Source: Mosigvirus mar005p1
Reading direction: 5' to 3' (one strand)
Sequence record: OZ035759.1
DNA: 64,000 nucleotides
In this document: one piece after another, positions 1,578 to 27,239 of the stretch
How the letters are laid out: each line of letters starts with the position of its first letter
Position numbering within the stretch: the stretch's first letter is position 1
Notes under the pieces: generated by a model
The model's database searches: none
What the model saw: only the letters and a program-made list of their open reading frames with translations
Told to the model about the DNA's origin: nothing
Position numbers and translations under genes: made by a program

Positions 1578-1885
1578 CGTAAAGTCCCTGCAATTGGAAT
1601 ACTAACAATACGGCCTGTGTCCAGGATTCGTTGATACAATCTTTGCGTCCCCGCATCTAGTTTAATGTGTTTCATTTCAAGCTTATTAAACCAGAACTTA
1701 CGCGGAGTTTCGACCATTCTTAGAACTCCCATTTTTAAATCTGTTTTATACTGGGTTTTCAAAGTATCGAAAACTTTATCTGCAATATCCTTTCTAAAAA
1801 ATACTGCAGGACGATGCTCATCAAGTGGAACCGGGACAGTAAATCCTTCCATATCTCGATAAACTATTGCATATACATAAACCAT
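1574..1885 (-). CDS. hypothetical protein (dda.1 position)
   Basis: 103-aa ORF; ATGA start/stop overlap with dda. Confidence 0.55.
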   Translation of the reverse strand: MVYVYAIVYRDMEGFTVPVPLDEHRPAVFFRKDIADKVFDTLKTQYKTDLKMGVLRMVETPRKFWFNKLEMKHIKLDAGTQRLYQRILDTGRIVSIPIAGTLR

Positions 1886-1887
1886 AA

Positions 1888-2634
1888 TTAACCTTTAATC
1901 AGTTGGAATAATGATGCGCTAAGTGGTAAGCCACGTTTCAATTTTAATTTACCAATGAAACCAATCTTTTCAAAACGTTGCAGACCTTGGATAACTTTAT
2001 CATATGTATCGAAAAGCGATTCAGCGTCAGTTAATTTAGTTTTAGTTTTCCAGTCAGAGCCTTTAAGAAGAACGTTGAGTTTAGTAAGTTCATGGCCTTC
2101 TGCTTGATGTGAGCCGTTAATGCGTGCTTTCAAAGCAACAATTCTAAGTTTAGATTCGTTAGATAAAGGTTGATTTTTCATCATGTTCGCCATATGCTTA
2201 ACACGATTTTCACGTTTTGCTCGGATTTTTAAAATAGTGCCATAAACATTTTTAATTTGGGCCCATTTCTTCTCGTCGAGATTAAGTTTCTCTACTTTAC
2301 GGGCAGAAGGATTAGCAATACGTCTTGCAACAGCGTCGCGTTTCTCAATAAGTTCTTCTAATGTTAAATCAGAACGAGCCGTGTTATATTTTTTCTTAAC
2401 TGGGATAACATTACCTTTAATGTAGCCTATATCATTATTAAAACGTTCTAAGGATAATTTCTCACCTTCAACAGAGTTATTGAAAGATTCACCTGAGTAA
2501 GCGCAGACCTTTTGATCAAGAATGTTTTTAAGGTAATTAAAGTCTAAGTTAAAATCCTTAGAGCGTCTCTTCGCAGAAGCTCTGGTGTGGTCAAGACGAC
2601 GATTGATTTTGTTAATTTTATTATTTGATAACAT
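1888..2634 (-). CDS. hypothetical basic protein at the T4 srd position (possible anti-sigma Srd-like)
   Basis: 248-aa ORF; identity inferred from position only; preceded by early promoter. Confidence 0.45.
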   Translation of the reverse strand: MLSNNKINKINRRLDHTRASAKRRSKDFNLDFNYLKNILDQKVCAYSGESFNNSVEGEKLSLERFNNDIGYIKGNVIPVKKKYNTARSDLTLEELIEKRDAVARRIANPSARKVEKLNLDEKKWAQIKNVYGTILKIRAKRENRVKHMANMMKNQPLSNESKLRIVALKARINGSHQAEGHELTKLNVLLKGSDWKTKTKLTDAESLFDTYDKVIQGLQRFEKIGFIGKLKLKRGLPLSASLFQLIKG

Positions 2635-2787: not shown

Positions 2788-3396
2788 TCAGTAACTGACA
2801 ATAGACAGATTCCAGATTGTATAACGTCCATCCTGAATAATAGAATCTACACGCAGTGTAGTCCCTATAGGGAGCATAAATTCACATTCGTCAGATATAA
2901 GTCTAGCATTAGACCGTCTTGTCGCTTCAGGGAAAGCTCCATTGAACTCACAAGATGGCGCAGCCAGAATCATGTTAAGCATATGTTCACGGAAGTTGAA
3001 AGCAAATGGTGCATCTTTAATGCAGAACATATTAAATGTTCCGTAAAAATTATACGAAGCAAAGTTACGTGCTACACCGAACACTGGACTAAAGCTCATT
3101 ACTCTGTCAAATTTAATAATACTACCAACGCCTTTATCGTCGAGTGTGGCCATAGTTTTCTTAGAGATTCCACGATACATTGTCTCAGGAACTGAAGAAG
3201 ACCAATTTCTACGAACAATTGCACTTAAATCTTGTTGGATGCTATCAGGCTTGTTTTCCATACACTGCCACAGTACACTTTGTTCAATGTCGCTGAATTG
3301 CTCATCGATTTTGTACTGAAGCATATCTTGATAATCTGGACATTGGGCACGACGAACCATTTCTTCAATTTCACACTCGTTATACGGCATAAACAT
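2788..3396 (-). CDS. modA: ADP-ribosyltransferase ModA-like
   Basis: 202 aa; R-S-ExE ART signature elements (YRG, ECEF); position after srd slot as in T4. Confidence 0.65.
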   Translation of the reverse strand: MFMPYNECEIEEMVRRAQCPDYQDMLQYKIDEQFSDIEQSVLWQCMENKPDSIQQDLSAIVRRNWSSSVPETMYRGISKKTMATLDDKGVGSIIKFDRVMSFSPVFGVARNFASYNFYGTFNMFCIKDAPFAFNFREHMLNMILAAPSCEFNGAFPEATRRSNARLISDECEFMLPIGTTLRVDSIIQDGRYTIWNLSIVSY

Positions 3397-3424
3397 TTTG
3401 GTTTCTCCTCTGGGTGATAGATCT

Positions 3425-3453
3425 ATAATATCATCGTCTGTAGAGTTTGTACA
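3425..3453 (-). promoter_or_regulatory. T4-type early promoter upstream of modA
   Basis: Minus strand TGTACA-17 nt-TATTAT, followed by AGGAG SD and ATG. Confidence 0.45.
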
Positions 3454-4035
3454 CTAAAAATTCAACATTTTCAAATGAATGATTTTGTATAATCGAGATA
3501 AAGGGTCATATTCTAAGTCTTCAATTTCCACAATCTCAAATCTAGAGATACCTGAGACCATGTACTCTTGTTCAGATTCAATCATATCTAGGACGTCAAC
3601 ACGCGTTTCTTCCATAACATGCTTAGGGTTCTTTCCGGCGAGTACAATGTTAACCATGTTTTGGTAGTAATCAAAAATGAACGGAGCATTCCTGAGACTA
3701 AGAATAGTGTACGTCTGATATTCCCATCTCCCAGAGAATTGACGAGCTGTACTGAAATCAGTTGTGAACGATGTTACTCGTCCAGGAGACCAATGGCATC
3801 CAACAGAAAGAAGTGAAAGACGTTCTACTTCTTCTGGAGTTACACCGCGGTAGAGTTCTACTGGTACTGTAGAAGTCATATGCTTACGAACAAGATGGTC
3901 TAATTCATAGTGGAAATCCGGGTCTTCCTTAGAATCGGTGCAAGCCCAGAGAATGTTTTGTTCTTGGCGGGTGAATTTGCTATCAATCAGATTTGTTAGG
4001 TATTCGCGTTCTTGAAGTTCAGATTGACATGTCAT
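3454..4035 (-). CDS. modB: ADP-ribosyltransferase ModB-like
   Basis: 193 aa; YRG...STAR...ESEQE motifs; paralogue of adjacent modA. Confidence 0.65.
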   Translation of the reverse strand: MTCQSELQEREYLTNLIDSKFTRQEQNILWACTDSKEDPDFHYELDHLVRKHMTSTVPVELYRGVTPEEVERLSLLSVGCHWSPGRVTSFTTDFSTARQFSGRWEYQTYTILSLRNAPFIFDYYQNMVNIVLAGKNPKHVMEETRVDVLDMIESEQEYMVSGISRFEIVEIEDLEYDPLSRLYKIIHLKMLNF

Positions 4036-4062
4036 GATAGACCTCCATTTAAAGATAAGCCT

Positions 4063-4091
4063 ATCATAACACGAGAGGAGGGAATGTAAAC
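4063..4091 (-). promoter_or_regulatory. T4-type early promoter upstream of modB
   Basis: Minus strand GTTTACA-16 nt-TATGAT, then SD and ATG at 4035. Confidence 0.55.
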
Positions 4092-4255
4092 TATTTTTTA
4101 AGCTTTCCTACTAAAGGTCCATCAGGGCCAGGTTGTTCTAACATGAATAACGATGCTTTAAAAAGCAATGTCAACCCTTTCACCATTCGATACCATGTCT
4201 CAAAGTCTTTTTCCTTGATTTCTAGTAAGAATTTCTCTTTAAATTTCTCTTTCAT
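4091..4255 (-). CDS. small hypothetical protein (54 aa)
   Basis: ORF below the 60-aa track threshold; ATGA overlap with upstream ORF suggests translational coupling. Confidence 0.3.
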   Translation of the reverse strand: MKEKFKEKFLLEIKEKDFETWYRMVKGLTLLFKASLFMLEQPGPDGPLVGKLKK

Positions 4256-4440
4256 TTCCAAGGACTCCATGGTGGAGGGTCGTCATAATAAGACGCTAGG
4301 TCTTTCAGGACTTCTAACGGTAAACTAAAACCATGACGTTGTATAATATTACCAATTTCATTGACAAGTTCACCACGTTGTTCTTTAGGAGCCTCAACTT
4401 CGGACTCATCAAACATACTCATCAAGTCCATATTATTCAC
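4252..4440 (-). CDS. hypothetical protein
   Basis: 62-aa ORF, start overlaps stop of upstream gene. Confidence 0.45.
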   Translation of the reverse strand: MNNMDLMSMFDESEVEAPKEQRGELVNEIGNIIQRHGFSLPLEVLKDLASYYDDPPPWSPWK

Positions 4441-4897
4441 CGAGATAAAAACTAGCCGGTTCAGAGAATGTTTCTAGTGCTACACCTTTTGTCTTAAAAA
4501 ATTTCCAAATAGCTCGTTGCAAATGGATTAAATCTGCTAATGATGTAATAAAGTATTTTTTGGCAAAATACGTATGGTCTCGCTTTTCAAACAGGTCTAA
4601 ACGCTTTTCAGGATTCACATAAACGGCATTTTCTGTAGATTCATACCCTAAGTCCTTTATGCCTTCTTCAAGACTAAACGGAGAATTTTTAGAATGAGTA
4701 ATAGCTCCAACTCGCTCTACACGAATTTTGTAACCTTTAGGAATCTGCAATTTGCAGAATTCTTCTACGATATATTGCGGATTATTTAGACTTTTGTTAA
4801 TGAGAATAGCTATTTCTAGTGGAGTCTTATCTTCCACTGGTATATGTTTAAATGACTTGGCTTCAAGCAAATACATTTTAAATAGCATAGCATCCAT
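4433..4897 (-). CDS. hypothetical protein (T4 mrh-region position)
   Basis: 154-aa ORF in operon context. Confidence 0.55.
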   Translation of the reverse strand: MDAMLFKMYLLEAKSFKHIPVEDKTPLEIAILINKSLNNPQYIVEEFCKLQIPKGYKIRVERVGAITHSKNSPFSLEEGIKDLGYESTENAVYVNPEKRLDLFEKRDHTYFAKKYFITSLADLIHLQRAIWKFFKTKGVALETFSEPASFYLGE

Positions 4898-5076
4898 TAT
4901 AATTTCCTCGATGGTTCACCCATATAAAGTTTTACAATACGTTCGCCTTCATCTTCGACGAGCTTCTCTTCATGTTTCTGGAATTCTTTAGCCATATTCT
5001 CTTCAAGAACATCCAGCCAATCTTCTGGTCCGACACCATCATTCCAGCTTTTAAACCATTTTACTATTCTGTTCAT
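4897..5076 (-). CDS. small hypothetical protein (59 aa)
   Basis: ORF just below track threshold; ATGA overlap with upstream gene, TAATG overlap with downstream gene. Confidence 0.4.
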   Translation of the reverse strand: MNRIVKWFKSWNDGVGPEDWLDVLEENMAKEFQKHEEKLVEDEGERIVKLYMGEPSRKL

Positions 5077-5309
5077 TCGCAGCTCCCTGAGTCCGAACTA
5101 CAATCGGAATAACTTGAACCAGAATCTCCAGACCAGGATGATACGTAAGAATGATTATAACTTGAAGAGTTTGAAGCAGACTTAGGACGAATAACTTCTT
5201 CCATCATGCCGTCACCAATGTATTCCCAACTTTTTTCGTGTGTATCAGGAATAGGCATCATACCTTCGCCCGGTTTAGCAGCAAACAACTTCTTCAGCAT
5301 CGTAAGCAT
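5073..5309 (-). CDS. hypothetical protein with Ser-rich low-complexity C-terminus
   Basis: Track ORF 5073..5384 trimmed to internal ATG with AGGA SD; start uncertain. Confidence 0.4.
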   Translation of the reverse strand: MLTMLKKLFAAKPGEGMMPIPDTHEKSWEYIGDGMMEEVIRPKSASNSSSYNHSYVSSWSGDSGSSYSDCSSDSGSCE

Positions 5310-5502
5310 TAATTGTTCCTCGAACAAAACGAACACCACCATCATCCCAACGGATTTCGGCATTAAATTTGACGTCTTCACCATCCATCATGAATGAGTG
5401 TACGACTACGTCATCATAATATCCAAGACCGTATTTCAACGAAACTTCTTGTGCAATCAAAGCACCTAATGTGTTATTAGGTTTAATCCAACGATTTAAC
5501 AT
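5275..5502 (-). CDS. hypothetical protein
   Basis: Track ORF 5275..5571 trimmed to internal ATG preceded by GAGGAG; 5' extension overlaps promoter. Confidence 0.45.
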   Translation of the reverse strand: MLNRWIKPNNTLGALIAQEVSLKYGLGYYDDVVVHSFMMDGEDVKFNAEIRWDDGGVRFVRGTINAYDAEEVVCC

Positions 5503-5530
5503 ATTGTTCTCCTCTTGAGTAAGTAAAAAT

Positions 5531-5560
5531 ATCTTAACACAGTTTTTAGTGGTTGTAAAC
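5531..5560 (-). promoter_or_regulatory. T4-type early promoter
   Basis: Minus strand GTTTACA-~18 nt-TAAGAT. Confidence 0.4.
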
Positions 5561-5565
5561 TGTAG

Positions 5566-5594
5566 AAACAAAAAAGGAATCCCGAAGGATTCCT
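5566..5594 (-). terminator. Rho-independent terminator downstream of soc (UUCG tetraloop hairpin + U-run)
   Basis: Minus strand AGGAAUCC-UUCG-GGAUUCCU followed by UUUUUUGUUU. Confidence 0.7.
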
Positions 5595-5602
5595 TAAATT
5601 AT

Positions 5603-5839
5603 TTAACCACTTACTGGTGTAGGGGTAAACATTGCAGCATTCTTAGTTTTCCAGTCAGCTGCATCAGAAACTACAGTAGAATATGCTGCCTTTTCTGATG
5701 GAAAGATTTGGTAATGAGAATCCGCAATCCGATGTTCGTTTGAATAAATCTCAAACGGTACAGAAACTTCCATACCTTTAACTTCTTTGCCTTCACCAGC
5801 AGGATGCGTAAAGGTTTTGATATTAACGTAACCACCCAT
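5603..5839 (-). CDS. soc: Small outer capsid protein Soc
   Basis: 78 aa; GYVNIKTF...HYQ.FPSEKAAYSTV resembles T4 Soc as recalled. Confidence 0.8.
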   Translation of the reverse strand: MGGYVNIKTFTHPAGEGKEVKGMEVSVPFEIYSNEHRIADSHYQIFPSEKAAYSTVVSDAADWKTKNAAMFTPTPVSG

Positions 5840-5884
5840 AATTAACTCCTTTGTTGTTTAATTACAGGTGTATTTATAACTTAA

Positions 5885-6406
5885 TCAGTAACCATTATCC
5901 TGACGTTCAAAGTTGTGTTGGTTTTTCAAGTAGTAAAGTTTAAAGATTTCTTCTGCAGTGAGTCCAAGACCCTGGAACATATTCAGAACAAAGTGGAGGA
6001 TATCAATCATCTCGAATTTAATTTCAAGCTGGTCTTCAGGGGACAGTTCATCGATACGACGATTACGATATTCGGCATGTTGTGCTTTCCAAGGCTTCCA
6101 TACAGAGCTAGCGGCTTTTTCACCATTGCTCATACCACCAAGTGAAGTCAGCAGTTCACGGAATTCATCATCAATATAATCTTTCTGATTACGCAGCCAA
6201 TCAACAACATCACCAGCAGTAGCCAATTCATCAGGATGTTTGTTATGTTCAGGCTTGTCATTTGCCAGACGAACCTGTAAAGATTTCTGCATATCAAGCA
6301 TTACCTGCAGTGGGTCTTTATCTTCGTGAATCAGAGCATTAAAATAAGCTTCTTCTGCTTTATCAACACCAGAAATAAGTTGTGAACATTCGTTAAAGTG
6401 TGCCAT
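5885..6406 (-). CDS. 56: dCTP pyrophosphatase (gp56)
   Basis: 173 aa; colinear with T4 gp56 (MAHFNEC...LYYLKN...ARQDNGY). Confidence 0.88.
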   Translation of the reverse strand: MAHFNECSQLISGVDKAEEAYFNALIHEDKDPLQVMLDMQKSLQVRLANDKPEHNKHPDELATAGDVVDWLRNQKDYIDDEFRELLTSLGGMSNGEKAASSVWKPWKAQHAEYRNRRIDELSPEDQLEIKFEMIDILHFVLNMFQGLGLTAEEIFKLYYLKNQHNFERQDNGY

Positions 6407-6496
6407 TATTTTTTCCTTTCAATTCAGTATAAGAGAGTTAATTCTAACATTAATTTTATAAAGCGTAATAAATAATAAGGTAACTAAGGAGATATT

Positions 6497-6694
6497 ATGT
6501 TTAAACTTCCATCGTTAATCAACGCTATTAAAGGCAATAAAAAGAAAACTGCTATCGCTGCAATAGTTGTAGGTGGCATTATTTCATGGAACTTCGGGAT
6601 TGCACCATTGTTAGTTGCCCATGGTATTATAGTTCCTTCTGTTCCATTGGATACTGTAGTTGATTTGGCCTTTGCTATTGTAGGACTGGTTTAA
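6497..6694 (+). CDS. small hydrophobic membrane protein, plus strand
   Basis: 65-aa ORF preceded by canonical RBS TAAGGAGATATT-ATG; lies in the 56-61 gap. Confidence 0.5.
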   Translation: MFKLPSLINAIKGNKKKTAIAAIVVGGIISWNFGIAPLLVAHGIIVPSVPLDTVVDLAFAIVGLV

Positions 6695-7713
6695 ATCTTC
6701 GAATAACGAGATAATCTCATTTTAGCATGCAACCCACTCGAAATATTCTGTTTCATATATTCTAAAATTTCTTGTGGTGTTGCATTTTCTTTCATTACCA
6801 TATCATTCACATCCTTTGATCTCCATGGAGCTCGGTCCCAGAACATGACACGTTCGCCTGCATCAACTAATCGCTTCATGCGAGCTATAGTATCCGGATG
6901 CCTAGGTTCATTATCCATTACCCATACCCGACGTTCTTTAAATGGTACCACATCTAAATCTATTGAGCCGCCTGTAATAGCGATTGCATTGGGTATGAAT
7001 AAACTATCAATAGGGCCTTCCATTACCCAGACGTCTCCTTCCTTAACACGTTCAACACCATAAATTTTTGTTGCCGACTCAAACGCTTTAATAGTGATAT
7101 ATTTCTGAGGAGCATCTTTACGAAGTGCACGCCCTTGGAATGACTCGGCCTTCCCATCTTTATTAAAAATAGGAATCACTAAACGTGGTTCGGGAATCTC
7201 TTTCTTATACGTACCAGGTTGAATCTTGTTGACCAATTTGGGCCATTCTAATGTGAACCATAGTCTATTCCATGATTCTTTAGGAATGCATCTAGACTTA
7301 ACATATTTCACAATAGGATGCTCTTCAGGCAGCTTGTCCAGACGAGAACAAGACGGCAAAGAATTTATAGTCTTTTTCTCCGGTTCTGGTTTATGTTCAG
7401 GAACCTTTTCAATCTTTGGTTCCATTCTAGCTTTTTCTTTACGAACTTCCATTAGATATTCGCGATAAAGCTCTTCATCATACTCTTTTAAGTATCCGGA
7501 AATTGTATTGTGGTATTGACAGTTATAGCAATGTACATTACCAGGAGTACCGCCATAATACCATCCGCGAGCTTTCATTGCATCTGTCTGGGAGTCGCCA
7601 CAAACTGGACATCGAAATGTTAATTTAAATGTGCTTGAATTATTGATTTGTCTAAAACGAGGTAGGTGAGAAAACGCACGATAAGCAAATTCATTATCTA
7701 TCCATTCAGCCAT
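6691..7713 (-). CDS. 61: DNA primase (gp61)
   Basis: 340 aa; N-terminal zinc ribbon CPVCGDS...C..C; position between 56 and 41. Confidence 0.82.
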   Translation of the reverse strand: MAEWIDNEFAYRAFSHLPRFRQINNSSTFKLTFRCPVCGDSQTDAMKARGWYYGGTPGNVHCYNCQYHNTISGYLKEYDEELYREYLMEVRKEKARMEPKIEKVPEHKPEPEKKTINSLPSCSRLDKLPEEHPIVKYVKSRCIPKESWNRLWFTLEWPKLVNKIQPGTYKKEIPEPRLVIPIFNKDGKAESFQGRALRKDAPQKYITIKAFESATKIYGVERVKEGDVWVMEGPIDSLFIPNAIAITGGSIDLDVVPFKERRVWVMDNEPRHPDTIARMKRLVDAGERVMFWDRAPWRSKDVNDMVMKENATPQEILEYMKQNISSGLHAKMRLSRYSKI

Positions 7714-7752
7714 AGTATTCTCCAGAGGCCTTAAATTAATAAGGCCATCTTA

Positions 7753-8247
7753 TCACAACTTATTAATATTTACTTTAATTCGCTTTCTTTTCTTGGAAGG
7801 AATTTGTTCTGGACCTTTATTTACGACTGCACCTGTAGTTGTTCCTGATGCAATAGCTTGAGGACTGCCGCCTGAATCACCAGCAACCATATCCTCAAAT
7901 AAAGGGAGTTCTTTAAATATTTCTTTCTGTTGTTCTTCAGTAATGTTATAGCGTGAAGCTACAGCACTCCAGGCAGACATCATTGAGGCCATTCCATTAA
8001 GACCCGGAACAGTGCTCATCATTCGCTTCATTGAACGAACTGAAGCATGAAAAGGTGTATAAGCCGCTTTCTCTTCAGGAGTGGAAGGACGTTTAAGAAC
8101 ACTTCCACGTTCATCGATGATTTTGGCTTCATATGCTTTCCATTCGGTAAAAGGTTTTTGCATTAGTCGAATAAACTTATATGCGTAAACAGAATCTATT
8201 GTAGTGTTAATAATACCCATAGGTACCTCCTGAGTATATTTAATCAA
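7753..8247 (-). CDS. hypothetical protein (61.1 region)
   Basis: 164-aa ORF. Confidence 0.55.
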   Translation of the reverse strand: MIKYTQEVPMGIINTTIDSVYAYKFIRLMQKPFTEWKAYEAKIIDERGSVLKRPSTPEEKAAYTPFHASVRSMKRMMSTVPGLNGMASMMSAWSAVASRYNITEEQQKEIFKELPLFEDMVAGDSGGSPQAIASGTTTGAVVNKGPEQIPSKKRKRIKVNINKL

Positions 8248-8437
8248 TCACAAAGATCGCTTTATCACCGTTCGCATCTGTGACTTCATATGTAGTGCCT
8301 TCATACTGTGGAATATTCCAAATTACACCGTCATTAGCTTTTACGCTAATACGGCATTGGTGTTTTGAAACAACTTCATAATCTTCAAAACTTGTAAAAA
8401 CACTAATTTTAGAACCGGTGCAAATTGCAGTAGTCAT
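8240..8437 (-). CDS. hypothetical protein
   Basis: 65-aa ORF, overlapping stop/start with neighbours. Confidence 0.5.
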   Translation of the reverse strand: MTTAICTGSKISVFTSFEDYEVVSKHQCRISVKANDGVIWNIPQYEGTTYEVTDANGDKAIFVID

Positions 8438-8438
8438 T

Positions 8439-9098
8439 TTAACCTCGATTCATAAATGCATTAAATATTTGGTCATCAACAGAAATTTCTAATTCGACTT
8501 CAATTGCTTCGGCCTTTTCTTCAGGTGGTAATTCGTATCCACACACTACAATTTTTTCATCGATATCAAAATATACAGAAGCAATACGATTAATGTTACT
8601 TTCAGTTAAGTCTAAATCAACATCAACATCTTTTTGACCTACACTTAAAGGATAACTAATACGGGTTATTTTATTATCTTTAACAAAGAGTCCACCAACA
8701 TACTCTGTACTACGTTTAAAGTTTACACGTTTCCGAATTGAAAGATATGATGCATCTTTACCATGAGCTCGGCTCATAGGACATAATGAATAGCTAGAAT
8801 AAGAGATGTCAAATCCTACACCTTCAATATGAGCCAACGTGTCATGATTAAACCAATTATAATCATATGCCAAATCCATTATATTGTAATATGTGAAAGG
8901 CACAGGATTAACATCATATGTTGTACCTTTAAAATCTGCCCAGGCAACGATTTCATTATCTTTAACAATTACAAAAATTACACCAATATGATATCCGTTA
9001 TTATTTTCGTTCGGCGTTATATTATAACATTGTGCATTAGGAAATTTACCATATTTAAATGGTGCGTTTTTGTGCATATAATAAATCATATTATTCAC
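8439..9098 (-). CDS. hypothetical protein
   Basis: 219-aa ORF. Confidence 0.55.
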   Translation of the reverse strand: MNNMIYYMHKNAPFKYGKFPNAQCYNITPNENNNGYHIGVIFVIVKDNEIVAWADFKGTTYDVNPVPFTYYNIMDLAYDYNWFNHDTLAHIEGVGFDISYSSYSLCPMSRAHGKDASYLSIRKRVNFKRSTEYVGGLFVKDNKITRISYPLSVGQKDVDVDLDLTESNINRIASVYFDIDEKIVVCGYELPPEEKAEAIEVELEISVDDQIFNAFMNRG

Positions 9099-9384
9099 CT
9101 GTGATTTCGGTTACGATATCTTTGTTATCGAAATTAGGGTCACAATACAAAACATAGTTGTACTGCATGATACCACCAGACTTAAGTTGTTCAACAACTT
9201 TATTAACCATATTAGGACGGTCTCGTTTAGTGATGTTCATAATATCAGAGAAGATTTGTTGTTCAACATCTTCTTGATTTGCAGTCATTGACCACTCACA
9301 GAGGTCTTTATCATAACCTGCCGTAACTGGAGCCGGTGCACATGATACTGCAAGTAAGATTGCTGCCAATGATAACTTTTTCAT
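9091..9384 (-). CDS. sp: Spackle-like periplasmic protein (inhibitor of gp5 lysozyme)
   Basis: 97 aa with signal peptide MKKLSLAAILLAVSCAPA; size and position match T4 sp. Confidence 0.65.
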   Translation of the reverse strand: MKKLSLAAILLAVSCAPAPVTAGYDKDLCEWSMTANQEDVEQQIFSDIMNITKRDRPNMVNKVVEQLKSGGIMQYNYVLYCDPNFDNKDIVTEITGE

Positions 9385-9413
9385 TTTAACTCCTTAGTTG
9401 ATTTGATAGGACT

Positions 9414-9443
9414 ACTATACTATAGTCCATCTATAATGTAAAC
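9414..9443 (-). promoter_or_regulatory. T4-type early promoter upstream of sp
   Basis: Minus strand GTTTACA-~17 nt-TATAGT. Confidence 0.5.
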
Positions 9444-9447
9444 AAGT

Positions 9448-9696
9448 TTATTCTTTTTCGCGAATAATAATTACTTGTTGAGGCTGCTGAGCCGATTTCT
9501 TTTCGGCAACGATAGACCAAATTAAAGTTCCAATCCAACCAACCATCGTCCAGTTAAAGAGTAAAGATACAAAGAAGATTGCTGTTGTGCTTTTTGTGCC
9601 ACGAATAAGTGCGATTACCCAAGGCAACATGTAAATGATGATTGAACCAATACCTGCGATTAAAACTGCTACTGAACTAGCTACGAATAATTCCAT
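9448..9696 (-). CDS. small membrane protein (two predicted TM helices)
   Basis: 82-aa hydrophobic ORF. Confidence 0.55.
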   Translation of the reverse strand: MELFVASSVAVLIAGIGSIIIYMLPWVIALIRGTKSTTAIFFVSLLFNWTMVGWIGTLIWSIVAEKKSAQQPQQVIIIREKE

Positions 9697-9757
9697 GTTA
9701 ATTTCCTCTTGATTTGTTATGTTTATAATATCTTGTTTTAACTTTGGTGTAAACCAA

Positions 9758-10126
9758 TTAATTAAATTTGTTTAAACGTTCAATACACTGGACGTAGTTA
9801 TTCGCGATTTGTTTCTGGGTAGGCTCTTTACCAGTTGTTTCAACATAGCGAATGAATGCGATTTCAGTAGCCTGTAAGCAATGTTCTTTAACGCGTTGTT
9901 CTTTTGACAATGCTACAGTATCAGAGTCACGATAACGTTGAGCATGAGCATCAGCTTGAATCATTCGATTACCTACAGTAACCGGGTCTTCCACTTCAAC
10001 TTTAGGTTGGTCGTACTGTTTAACATTCGGATTGTAAATCAGTTGGCCAACATTATTAGGGATAAAGCCATGGGCACCACAACCGGTTAATCCAAATACC
10101 ATTGCTAAAGCGATTAATTTTTTCAT
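9758..10126 (-). CDS. putative lipoprotein
   Basis: Track ORF trimmed to internal start MKKLIALAMVFGLTGC (lipobox LTGC); 5' extension overlaps promoter. Confidence 0.55.
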   Translation of the reverse strand: MKKLIALAMVFGLTGCGAHGFIPNNVGQLIYNPNVKQYDQPKVEVEDPVTVGNRMIQADAHAQRYRDSDTVALSKEQRVKEHCLQATEIAFIRYVETTGKEPTQKQIANNYVQCIERLNKFN

Positions 10127-10149
10127 TTCAATTTCCTCTGTAGTTGATA

Positions 10150-10186
10150 GAAAGATAGTAACACAGTATTTGGTGCTTGTAAACAC
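10150..10186 (-). promoter_or_regulatory. T4-type early promoter upstream of lipoprotein gene
   Basis: Minus strand GTTTACA-17 nt-TTACTAT. Confidence 0.4.
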
Positions 10187-10399
10187 CTATTTTAAACTTT
10201 TGCGAAATTTGCGTTTTTCCTGACGAATCTGTCGTTTAGTCGGACGTACAGCAAATTTAACGAAGTCCACTTTACCATGTGGAAACTTTTCAGATGCTTC
10301 ACAGTCCATCATTAGTTCCCATCCTTCCAGAATAAGAGCTTTCCATTGTGTAGTTGATGCAAATTCGTATGTTGATGGTTTAAACACAGTTGAATACAT
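10187..10399 (-). CDS. hypothetical protein with C-terminal VRPTKRQ-R-basic motif
   Basis: Track ORF trimmed to ATG preceded by GAGGA SD; paralogue of 39362..39532. Confidence 0.45.
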   Translation of the reverse strand: MYSTVFKPSTYEFASTTQWKALILEGWELMMDCEASEKFPHGKVDFVKFAVRPTKRQIRQEKRKFRKSLK

Positions 10400-10400
10400 A

Positions 10401-10592
10401 TTATCCTCTGAAATCAGCTTCAAAAACTTTCTCGTCATTAACAAATGCTTTAACTAATGCGTTGTTCACTTCAGCAAGTTGTACCGCAACCCACTCGATT
10501 TCTTCGCGATCACCTGATAACATGATATCTTTAGTGAACATCTCACCGCTTTTAAACCAGCCAATAAAAGTAACTTTAGTTAATTTGCTCAT
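10401..10592 (-). CDS. dmd: Dmd-like (discriminator of mRNA degradation) small protein
   Basis: 63 aa from ATG with GAGGAAAT SD; FIGWFK...MFTKDI resembles T4 Dmd as recalled; position next to sp/41. Confidence 0.5.
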   Translation of the reverse strand: MSKLTKVTFIGWFKSGEMFTKDIMLSGDREEIEWVAVQLAEVNNALVKAFVNDEKVFEADFRG

Positions 10593-16929: not shown

Positions 16930-18086
16930 TCCGGGTACCTCAAAGCGTCATCAGAGTTAGTTATATCAATAATAGATATAGAGTTTTCTGCTAACCCGTT
17001 TTTAGATAATTGACGTTTATAATATCTTTCACAATATGTACACGTCGTCCCGCAGATCTCATTAGCACAATCGAAATCTGGATGTCTGAACCACCTTTTT
17101 TCTAAAAAGCCATCTAACAAAGAGGTTTCAATATTTACTGTATGTGAAAACTCAGTTTCGTTTTCAAGAGTGAAAATAGTCTCTAAAGGCTTCCACAGTT
17201 CTAACAAATTACCTTCAAACTTTTCAGAAGCGTATGCTTCAAGAACTTTCAAAATGTAGTCTGTGCTACCTGTACGTCCTGAAACTTTGAATTGAGTGAT
17301 ACCAATATCATTATAAAGTTTCAAATCTTGAGGACGAACAAAACGAGTTCTCAACCAGTTAAATGGGTCTGTATCACGAGCTTTAATACAGTGTTGCATT
17401 GGATATCCGTTTAAGGATTTAGCATCATCAGCTGTAACATCAGTACTATGGAAAATATAGCAAGAGTCACGATAGCTACAATGTGTTGTATACCCTTTAC
17501 CAGCATTAGAACAGAACTCATTTACAAGAACTTCAAATATTATATTGTTCTTATTGCAAAACTCTGCTGCACGCTTCAGGAAAGAAACTGAACGGTTCTT
17601 ATGAATTCCACAGCAGACCTTTTTGATATTATATTGGTCATGCAAGTATTTGATTTGAGTTACAGCATCGACATGTAGAATTGTTGAAACTTCAATCTCA
17701 ATGTCTTTATTGACTTCACGAACAATTTCCATAACAACAGGGTTAGCGATAGTAATACGCCATACGCCTATTGACCAAAGATACTGAACATAATCCTGAA
17801 TAGCTTTCTTCTTCCACTCAACTAGTTCTCTTTTTGAACCAGGATTTATCGTGTTGAGTGTATAGTTAAAGCAAATACCTAATTCGTTACAACGTTTAAC
17901 GTAATCTTCTAACATCTTTTTGTCAACGTCAGGAAGCCTAAAATCAGGTCTGGCTGCTACAAAAGCCATTTCTCTTGTAGAGCCGTATACTTCATTTATC
18001 AAGCTATTAGGATAAGTTTTATTGAGCTCTACGATTTTATCAAGAAGAGCTAAATCAAAATTCGTTCCGATTTTAAAAGTATTCAT
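16926..18086 (-). CDS. hypothetical Cys-rich protein (possible metal/Fe-S binding), modification-cluster member
   Basis: 386 aa; C-terminal C-x4-C-x3-C-x2-C (CANEICGTTCTYC) plus several other Cys. Confidence 0.55.
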   Translation of the reverse strand: MNTFKIGTNFDLALLDKIVELNKTYPNSLINEVYGSTREMAFVAARPDFRLPDVDKKMLEDYVKRCNELGICFNYTLNTINPGSKRELVEWKKKAIQDYVQYLWSIGVWRITIANPVVMEIVREVNKDIEIEVSTILHVDAVTQIKYLHDQYNIKKVCCGIHKNRSVSFLKRAAEFCNKNNIIFEVLVNEFCSNAGKGYTTHCSYRDSCYIFHSTDVTADDAKSLNGYPMQHCIKARDTDPFNWLRTRFVRPQDLKLYNDIGITQFKVSGRTGSTDYILKVLEAYASEKFEGNLLELWKPLETIFTLENETEFSHTVNIETSLLDGFLEKRWFRHPDFDCANEICGTTCTYCERYYKRQLSKNGLAENSISIIDITNSDDALRYPE

Positions 18087-27193: not shown

Positions 27194-27239
27194 TATAAAT
27201 CTCCATGATTAAAGCAATATAAATAGGTTTATCAATTTA

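Follow-up and report, generated by a model that had tools for sequence, protein, structure and literature searches.

Bacteriophage T4 carries late genes within its early regions, among them soc, lysozyme e, rI and gene 49, which are classic late-promoter genes with gp55 promoters of the TATAAATA type. The middle promoters of T4 have an established layout consisting of a MotA box, a spacer and a -10 hexamer. The T4 late motif occupies positions -13 to -6; its T at -13 shows poor conservation in RB69 and in other phages (PMC1524935), and at nine of the 50 listed T4 late promoters it is replaced by an A (PMC2988020). Start sites of T4 have been tabulated by dRNA-seq (bioRxiv 10.1101/2024.04.04.588121). 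The motif AATAAATA is the commonest known variant of the T4 late promoter. The subject of this analysis is an open reading frame (ORF) of 65 amino acids (aa) at 6497..6694 on the plus strand of a 64,000-nucleotide (nt) stretch of DNA from Mosigvirus mar005p1 (OZ035759.1; this whole stretch is referred to as the window), where it lies between gene 56 and gene 61. The window phage is a Mosigvirus, that is, a T4-type phage resembling RB69 and HX01. Judging from its conservation the ORF is almost certainly a real gene, and it probably forms, together with its predicted promoter, a self-contained late-gene cassette that is placed in the opposite orientation between the early/middle genes 61 and 56. 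The existence of the gene is already known, given that hundreds of automated annotations list it as a 'hypothetical protein' and that PHROG has a family for it.

A conserved gene between genes 56 and 61

The gene, its translation signals and its two neighbours are the following.
6497..6694, plus strand: coding sequence of the 65-aa ORF, with an ATG start and the stop codon TAA at 6692..6694; same family as RB69ORF029w and phrog_2024
6485..6491, plus strand: Shine-Dalgarno sequence TAAGGAG, 5 nt before the ATG; GGAG or GGAGG stands at the same place in 16 of 16 lineages examined
6691..6694, both strands: convergent 3'-end overlap of 4 nt (TTAA) between the ORF and gene 61, in which the two stop codons overlap
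5885..6406, minus strand: gene 56, dCTPase (phrog_173, E 1.5e-45; HX01 and RB69 annotation), divergent from the ORF
6691..7713, minus strand: gene 61, DNA primase (phrog_47, E 1.1e-101; HX01 and RB69 annotation), convergent with the ORF

Conservation was the test that an earlier note on this DNA had named for a real gene, and its outcome was strong. A tblastn search with the product of the ORF, MFKLPSLINAIKGNKKKTAIAAIVVGGIISWNFGIAPLLVAHGIIVPSVPLDTVVDLAFAIVGLV, retrieved 692 phage records in which the length and position are equal, 685 of them at a coverage of at least 80%, and residues 1-65 align over the full 65-position profile of phrog_2024 ('unknown function') with an E of 1.4e-27. RB69ORF029w (NP_861719) is 97% identical and occupies the same position, in the same orientation, between genes 56 and 61, and region 6300..6800 as a whole has 99% identity to phages JM17 and FL18 and 98-99% identity to HX01 and about 150 other records. 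Changes within the ORF are concentrated at the third codon position: the ratio of non-synonymous to synonymous substitution rates (dN/dS) ranges over 0.05-0.16 inside Mosigvirus and reaches 0.47 elsewhere, and a pairwise Nei-Gojobori comparison of the window with ESCO47 gave 30.5 synonymous differences (Sd), 16.5 non-synonymous differences (Nd) and a dN/dS of 0.10, with 14, 3 and 30 differences at codon positions 1, 2 and 3 respectively. At the level of sequence, these comparisons establish that the ORF is under purifying selection as a protein and that its length, position and orientation are kept across at least nine genera of T4-like phages, T4 included. A minus-strand ORF was considered as the source of the conservation and rejected: the sole candidate, at 6484..6579, has 31 aa, and the distribution of differences over codon positions agrees with the plus-strand frame. 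An Rfam scan of 6200..6900 gave no match, and a literature search on RB69ORF029w, T4 ribosome profiling and unannotated ORFs, gene 69/oriA and T4 start-site mapping found no paper on the ORF.

The strong ribosome-binding site and the orientation against all neighbours, both of which had been proposed from the letters of the window, hold up. TAAGGAG is followed by the 5-nt spacer ATATT and then by the ATG of the ORF, and every substantial ORF in 3000..10500 lies on the minus strand. The leader (6480..6560) is essentially unstructured, with a minimum free energy (MFE) of -5.3 kcal/mol and a z of +1.28; the translation-initiation region of the ORF is both strong and unstructured.

For synteny, the T4-like genomes carrying the gene were taken to be those of the Tevenvirinae genera plus Marfavirus. 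The gene faces the primase and converges on its 3' end in every such genome examined: the window, RB69, HX01, T4, ESCO47, UPEC01, CJ20, Marfa, KP1079, Moon, WG01, ZX14, SEA1, CIP9, KLB31, pzk-kv8 and the metagenomic locus L023. The overlap is usually 4 nt and is identical to that of the window in RB69, T4, ESCO47, Marfa, WG01, CIP9, KLB31 and Moon. The neighbour upstream of the gene varies: Mosig-, Gapriver-, Dhaka- and Gelderlandvirus have gene 56 there, T4 has dam, Marfa-, Moon- and Kanagawavirus have a MazG-like gene, and Jiaodavirus has a homing endonuclease gene. In Krischvirus (GEC-3S) and Slopekvirus (Matisse) gene 56 comes directly after the primase, and in Biquartavirus and Lazarusvirus no annotation of the gene was found beside the primase. 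The simplest reading of these arrangements would be that an ancestor of the Tevenvirinae gained, by insertion between 61 and 56, a cassette of promoter plus gene. T4-type phages fit this cassette into about 290 bp between two replication genes.

T4 itself has an orthologue of 66 aa and 55% identity at 17738..17938 (+) of NC_000866.4 (3239..3439 of locus L002), which sits in the 309-bp gap between dam and 61 and is preceded by AAAGGAGG. This orthologue is absent from the annotation of both AF158101.6 and NC_000866.4; the automated annotation of another T4 record, OZ209057, calls it a hypothetical protein, phrog 2024. It had been stated earlier that the interval where T4 carries dam and gene 69 is otherwise empty. 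In T4, the 56-61 interval holds not only dam but also the unannotated orthologue, which adjoins gene 61, and the mention of gene 69 needs correcting: segF, which we take to be the former 'gene 69', lies in the T4 record between soc and 56, outside the 56-61 interval. RB69 ORFs with no T4 match were classed as 'novel ORFs' by Nolan et al. 2006 (PMC1524935), and RB69ORF029w presumably belongs to this class because the T4 copy is unannotated. T4 is the reference organism of this group of phages, and transcriptomic, proteomic and knock-down screens take their genes from its curated annotation, so that a gene absent from that list is invisible in those screens. Now that its T4 position is given as 17738..17938 (+), the gene can be tested directly in the best of the available genetic systems. 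Nevertheless, given that the gene already stands as a 'hypothetical protein' in hundreds of records, the advance is modest unless a phenotype is found.

Homologues outside T4-like genomes are more distant. At L021 4001..4210 and L024 4001..4159 they follow a tail-tip gene, a gene for a 94-aa transmembrane plus coiled-coil protein and an EndoVII gene, all in the same orientation. A third, at L020 4001..4213, has a lysozyme gene close by and stands at the end of a stretch of contig bordering on bacterial genes (by Pfam HSP70/MreB-like, AlkA_N/HhH-GPD and PAS/GGDEF), and a fourth, at L019 129..308, is directly upstream of the gene for a 352-aa RelA/SpoT-domain protein. These settings would fit a late function, without defining that function. 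In a search intended to place such loci by phage type, their EndoVII gene gave matches of less than 60% identity only.

Two further features of the surroundings were recorded. The RefSeq entry of HX01 has tiny plus-strand ORFs of 25-37 aa (L001 3099..3176 and 1757..1954), one of them running over the start of gene 56; they look spurious, and none of the comparisons made supports them. In the window, two paralogous ORFs stand side by side at 2788..3396 (-; 202 aa) and 3454..4035 (-; 193 aa) and correspond to RNA polymerase ADP-ribosyltransferases of the ModA/ModB type in the HX01 annotation.

Predicted promoters on the two strands

The 90-bp intergenic region between the start codons of gene 56 and the ORF would hold back-to-back middle and late promoters, both predicted.
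6467..6474, plus strand: predicted late promoter of the gp55 type, 22 nt before the ATG; its sequence AATAAATA is the A(-13) variant of TATAAATA
6480, plus strand: predicted late transcription start, giving a 17-nt leader; placed from the motif spanning -13 to -6
6441..6465, minus strand: predicted MotA-dependent middle promoter for gene 56, with the MotA box CGCTTTA at 6465..6459, a 12-nt spacer and the -10 hexamer TAGAAT at 6446..6441

The sequence 5' of the first plus-strand ORF was compared in 16 lineages, and in 14 of these xATAAATA occurs 19-30 nt upstream of the ATG. The motif upstream of the gene is a perfect TATAAATA in Marfa, pzk-kv8, ZX14 and CIP9, AATAAATA in the window, RB69 and WG01, CATAAATA in Gaprivervirus, ESCO47, KP1079 and KLB31, and GATAAATA in T4, and the flanks around it are otherwise unalignable between genera. 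In Marfa-, Kanagawa- and Moonvirus it fits into an intergenic region of less than 50 nt between divergent start codons. Within the window, WATAAATA is scarce, with 10 sites on both strands where 18.4 were expected, and none of 100 shuffles fell below 10. The sites are at 5871, 6467, 27218, 38929, 46494/46498, 49601, 49824, 53536 and 56872, and seven of these nine distinct sites stand 22-32 nt upstream of a Shine-Dalgarno sequence plus ORF. The ORFs behind them are soc, lysozyme e, an rI-like 100-aa gene, gene 49, the ORF at 6497..6694, a 70-aa ORF at 49.8 kb and a 93-aa secreted-looking ORF at 46.5 kb; no ORF was found behind the sites at 27218 (+) and 53536 (+). Given that xATAAATA is kept across genera whose flanks cannot be aligned, and given the siting of WATAAATA in the window, the late element is assigned to the plus strand and to the ORF. 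On the strength of this motif, the gene very probably belongs to the late class.

The other strand has its own signal. The reverse complements of the upstream regions of ESCO47, UPEC01 and WG01 contain TGCTTT(A/T) or CGCTTTA, followed after 11-12 nt by TATAAT, which agrees with the established layout of MotA-dependent middle promoters. The earlier note had reported late-promoter-like and MotA-box-like elements and had left their strand ambiguous; the elements are present, and the ambiguity is now removed by assigning the late element to the plus strand and the MotA box to the minus strand. A tie between the late promoter and the activity of oriA was considered and set aside, as a review assigns dependence on late transcription to oriC and not to oriA.

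The fate of transcripts from either side was also considered. As the stop codons of the ORF and gene 61 overlap by 4 nt, there is no space for a terminator between them, and no terminator-like site was found on the plus strand in 6694..8300 or on the minus strand between gene 61 and gene 56. A likely bidirectional terminator at 5574..5595 (both strands), with a perfect 9-bp stem, a 4-nt loop and T-runs on both sides, is just downstream of soc and is the sole terminator-like site in 5500..8300. T4 transcribes both strands at different times (PMC2988020). From the sequence, early/middle read-through from gene 61 toward gene 56 would be antisense to the ORF, and a late transcript of the ORF, meeting no detected terminator, would continue antisense into gene 61.

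The protein family and its possible role

A profile search of 5.8 billion proteins identified 111 family members, and a full scan of 1.84 billion cluster representatives with a hidden Markov model (HMM) gave only 17 clusters, the listed members of which are 33-70 aa long, mostly 57-70. All 20 diverse family members tested match phrog_2024. The family core, W-N-[FLY]-x3-P-x5-G-x2-[LIV]-P-x-[VIL], is present in a protein of about 60-70 aa: W31, N32, P37 and P47 are invariant in 32 sequences, in which G43 and V49 are at least 90% conserved, and W31, N32 and P37 remain at least 90% conserved in a wider set of 20 sequences. Two main subtypes can be distinguished. Subtype A has the pattern ML-KL..LI.AIKG.KK...WNF..AP...AHG...P.V.LD..VD.AFA.VGL and is found in the window, T4 and Gaprivervirus; subtype B has the pattern MGT.FYQIWKL.DKKD...LALDVFLWNLLVVPIAATQG..LPQV..EH and is found in Dhakavirus, Marfavirus, Gelderlandvirus and one Kanagawavirus (ZX14). 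Jiaodavirus, Moonvirus and other Kanagawaviruses (CIP9, KLB31) have forms that diverge further. Subtype B is also a second copy in some Mosig- and Gapriverviruses, in tandem with A, which it follows in UPEC01 and VR26 and precedes in ESCO47. These paralogous second copies are located as follows.
L004, 2707..2907: subtype B second copy
L006, 2305..2508: subtype B second copy
L005, about 2707: subtype B second copy
L009: subtype B second copy
The subtype B copy in CJ20 and L009 starts with ATG TGA and is therefore broken. A pattern scan of IMG/VR found three loci only, all Gaprivervirus-like.

The claim that the product is largely transmembrane is borne out by hydropathy, which places one strong transmembrane segment at about residues 18-42; the Kyte-Doolittle 19-residue mean reaches its maximum of 1.93 over residues 20-41. 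A model made by AlphaFold2 (AF2) with the family alignment has an overall predicted local distance difference test (pLDDT) score of 80.7 and consists of a helix at 4-12, a helix at 15-41 (pLDDT 86-92), a loop at 42-50 and a helix at 51-62. The protein is divided accordingly into three parts.
6497..6547, plus strand, codons 1-17: basic N-terminal segment (net +5) with a short helix, predicted cytoplasmic
6548..6622, plus strand, codons 18-42: transmembrane helix with W31, N32 and P37, from hydropathy and AF2
6623..6691, plus strand, codons 43-65: G43...P47 loop and acidic-hydrophobic C-terminal helix (D52, D56), predicted periplasmic
Over 45 family members the mean charge is +2.5 at the N-terminus and -1.2 at the C-terminus (+5 and -2 respectively in the window protein), and the N-terminal charge exceeds the C-terminal in 42 of the 45. 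A basic N-terminus against an acidic C-terminus implies, by the positive-inside rule, an N-in/C-out orientation, and with high confidence the product is modelled as a single-pass inner-membrane protein of that topology. Given that the best-conserved residues are in the helix (W31, N32, P37) and in the loop (G43, P47 and then an acidic residue), a specific interaction is suggested rather than a generic anchor.

The best explanation of these observations can be set out as a sequence of steps. Late in infection, gp55-RNA polymerase would start at about 6480 from the AATAAATA motif at 6467..6474, and the messenger with its 17-nt leader would be translated into the 65-aa protein. This would enter the inner membrane with a basic cytoplasmic head, a helix of 25 residues and an acidic-hydrophobic periplasmic tail of 22 residues, and the transmembrane helix would present a conserved W31-N32...P37 face. 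A polar Asn inside a tightly conserved helix suggests helix-helix contacts within the membrane, which may represent self-association or the binding of a phage or host membrane protein. A Spackle homologue (9091..9384, -) and a gene for an 82-aa two-helix membrane protein (9448..9696, -), which HX01 labels 'immunity to superinfection', lie about 2.4 kb past the primase, so that small envelope-directed genes cluster around gene 61. The ORF product itself has no Pfam match to the T4 Imm family, and the Imm-like gene at 9448..9696 is separate from it. A late role in the envelope, in lysis timing or inhibition, membrane integrity or superinfection, is a tentative guess. More speculative still is the full proposal that T4 and phages closely related to it have here an overlooked late gene, one which the curated T4 reference lacks and whose product acts through its W-N...P face at the inner membrane in T-even lysis timing or inhibition, in late superinfection exclusion or in protection against membrane-acting host defence.

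Several other explanations were weighed against this proposal. It is possible that the protein is an auxiliary holin, a pinholin or an antiholin-like lysis-timing protein that builds up in the inner membrane late in infection and influences either the membrane potential or the formation of holes by the T holin. Its small size, the predicted late promoter and a single transmembrane helix (about 18-42) with polar residues (N32, and an Asp in subtype B) agree with such a role, as do the weak matches of two distant members to the holin family phrog_3427 (E 5e-4 and 2e-3), the presence of one distant homologue near a lysozyme gene and the labels 'holin' or 'putative holin' that some depositors have given to homologues, although such labels are no test. 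However, this is unlikely: the window protein has no Pfam holin or NCBIfam match even at E <=10, and the weak PHROG matches come from the hydrophobic segments of only two of 20 members. Furthermore, the last 23 residues are hydrophobic with only two Asp, so that the charged hydrophilic tail typical of holins is absent and the charge cluster is N-terminal instead, and the flanking genes are those for dCTPase and primase, whereas the lysozyme e homologue is about 50 kb off, near 56.8 kb. T4-type phages, moreover, already have T, RI and RIII. The same N-terminal charge cluster, when read with the hydrophobic core, P37 (at -6) and A41-H42-G43 (Ala at -3, Gly at -1), resembles the n, h and c regions of a cleavable Sec signal peptide formed by residues 1-43, which would free an acidic-hydrophobic peptide of 22 residues to the periplasm or outer leaflet, and the invariance of P37 and the at least 90% conservation of G43 are in keeping with this. 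Such a pre-peptide is nonetheless improbable, given that the best-conserved residues, W31, N32 and P37, would fall inside a signal peptide, which is normally poorly conserved, that about 24 hydrophobic residues would make a long h-region, that several members have F or W at -3 and that the AF2 model has one continuous helix at 15-41.

The arrangement of transcripts raises two further possibilities. A membrane-active toxin of the type I kind could be silenced by antisense early/middle transcripts of gene 61 and, on its release late in infection, could depolarise or kill the host or act against a membrane-based defence. The peptide is small and hydrophobic, the ORF opposes all neighbouring genes in orientation, and the read-through path of gene 61 covers it fully with no terminator found between. 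Against this, no dedicated antisense RNA gene, structure or Rfam family and no separate minus-strand unit of promoter and terminator were found, toxins of the Hok, TisB and Ldr type show no relation in sequence or fold, and conservation of a precise loop motif (G..LP.V.hE/D) points to a specific partner and not to general membrane damage; a toxin is accordingly held to be improbable, to about the same degree as a pre-peptide. Alternatively, the late promoter itself could be the functional element, providing an antisense RNA against primase mRNA that shuts off gene 61, or an origin-related transcript, with the ORF incidental to it. In the absence of a terminator between the ORF and gene 61, late transcripts must enter gene 61 antisense, oriA of T4 is annotated nearby, and opposing transcription at different times is on record for T4 (PMC2988020). 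This is nevertheless very improbable, as selection acts on the protein, the Shine-Dalgarno sequence, start codon and length are conserved, distant homologues occur in unrelated settings with no primase gene, and KP1079 has, as read by eye from the sequence, a GC-rich hairpin between the ORF and the primase.

Several observations weigh against a late gene with an envelope function as proposed here. In Moon and SEA1, TATTAAATA stands in place of xATAAATA, and the first base of GATAAATA in T4 and of CATAAATA in Gaprivervirus and Jiaodavirus is less usual than T or A. In Gaprivervirus and ESCO47 the MotA box TGCTTT of the other strand overlaps the first base of CATAAATA, and part of the conservation could therefore be that of the gene 56 promoter. 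Scans of the window protein and of the T4 or subtype B proteins against Pfam, NCBIfam and PADLOC gave no match, even at E <=10, and Foldseek searches with the AF2 model recovered nothing but family members in BFVD and nothing below E = 4 in the Protein Data Bank (PDB). A PDB sequence search with the family profile returned only transmembrane segments of nicotinic receptors, which at an E of about 0.1 are treated as compositional. In T4_ev240 (LR597657.1; L031 1411..1608) an A-run is 1 nt shorter than in T4 (AATAAAAACG against AATAAGAAACG), which frameshifts the ORF after codon 16; the phage is viable and the null allele real, or else the homopolymer was misread in sequencing. Given this frameshifted T4-derived copy, and given that some Gapriverviruses have a broken subtype B copy, the gene is probably not required under laboratory conditions.

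Comparison with known systems

Type I toxins (Hok, TisB, Ldr, Ibs) share with the ORF the form of a hydrophobic peptide of less than 70 aa whose gene is fully overlapped by transcription from the opposite strand. Unlike them, the ORF has no dedicated antisense small RNA (sRNA), Rfam match or homology, and it is found in a virulent phage behind a predicted late promoter. The holins of the T7 gp17.5 type, T4 RI, which has an N-terminal signal-anchor-release helix, and the ORF product are alike in size, in having one transmembrane helix, and in late expression and a place in the inner membrane, both of which are predicted for the ORF. The transmembrane helix of the Mosigvirus version is, in addition, rich in Gly, Ala and Ser, which is holin- or antiholin-like. 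The product nevertheless differs from small holins and antiholins in that it is without sequence or profile similarity to them, without a charged C-terminal tail, without an RI-like periplasmic globular domain and without an adjacent endolysin gene.

With the T4 late genes in early regions (soc, e, rI and 49) the ORF has in common a short leader and a strong Shine-Dalgarno sequence, and it has their motif at a distance like theirs (22 nt, against 22-32 nt for the others in the window). It is unlike them in being opposite in strand to its neighbours, in its 4-nt convergence on the primase and in the absence of a terminator, and its promoter is a predicted one. In comparison with phrog_2024 and RB69ORF029w there is no difference in substance, these being the same gene. 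What is new here is the proposed assignment of both promoter-like elements to a strand and a gene, the putative conserved late-promoter cassette and the subtypes and tandem-copy structure of the family, together with the recognition of a T4 orthologue that is absent from the curated reference.

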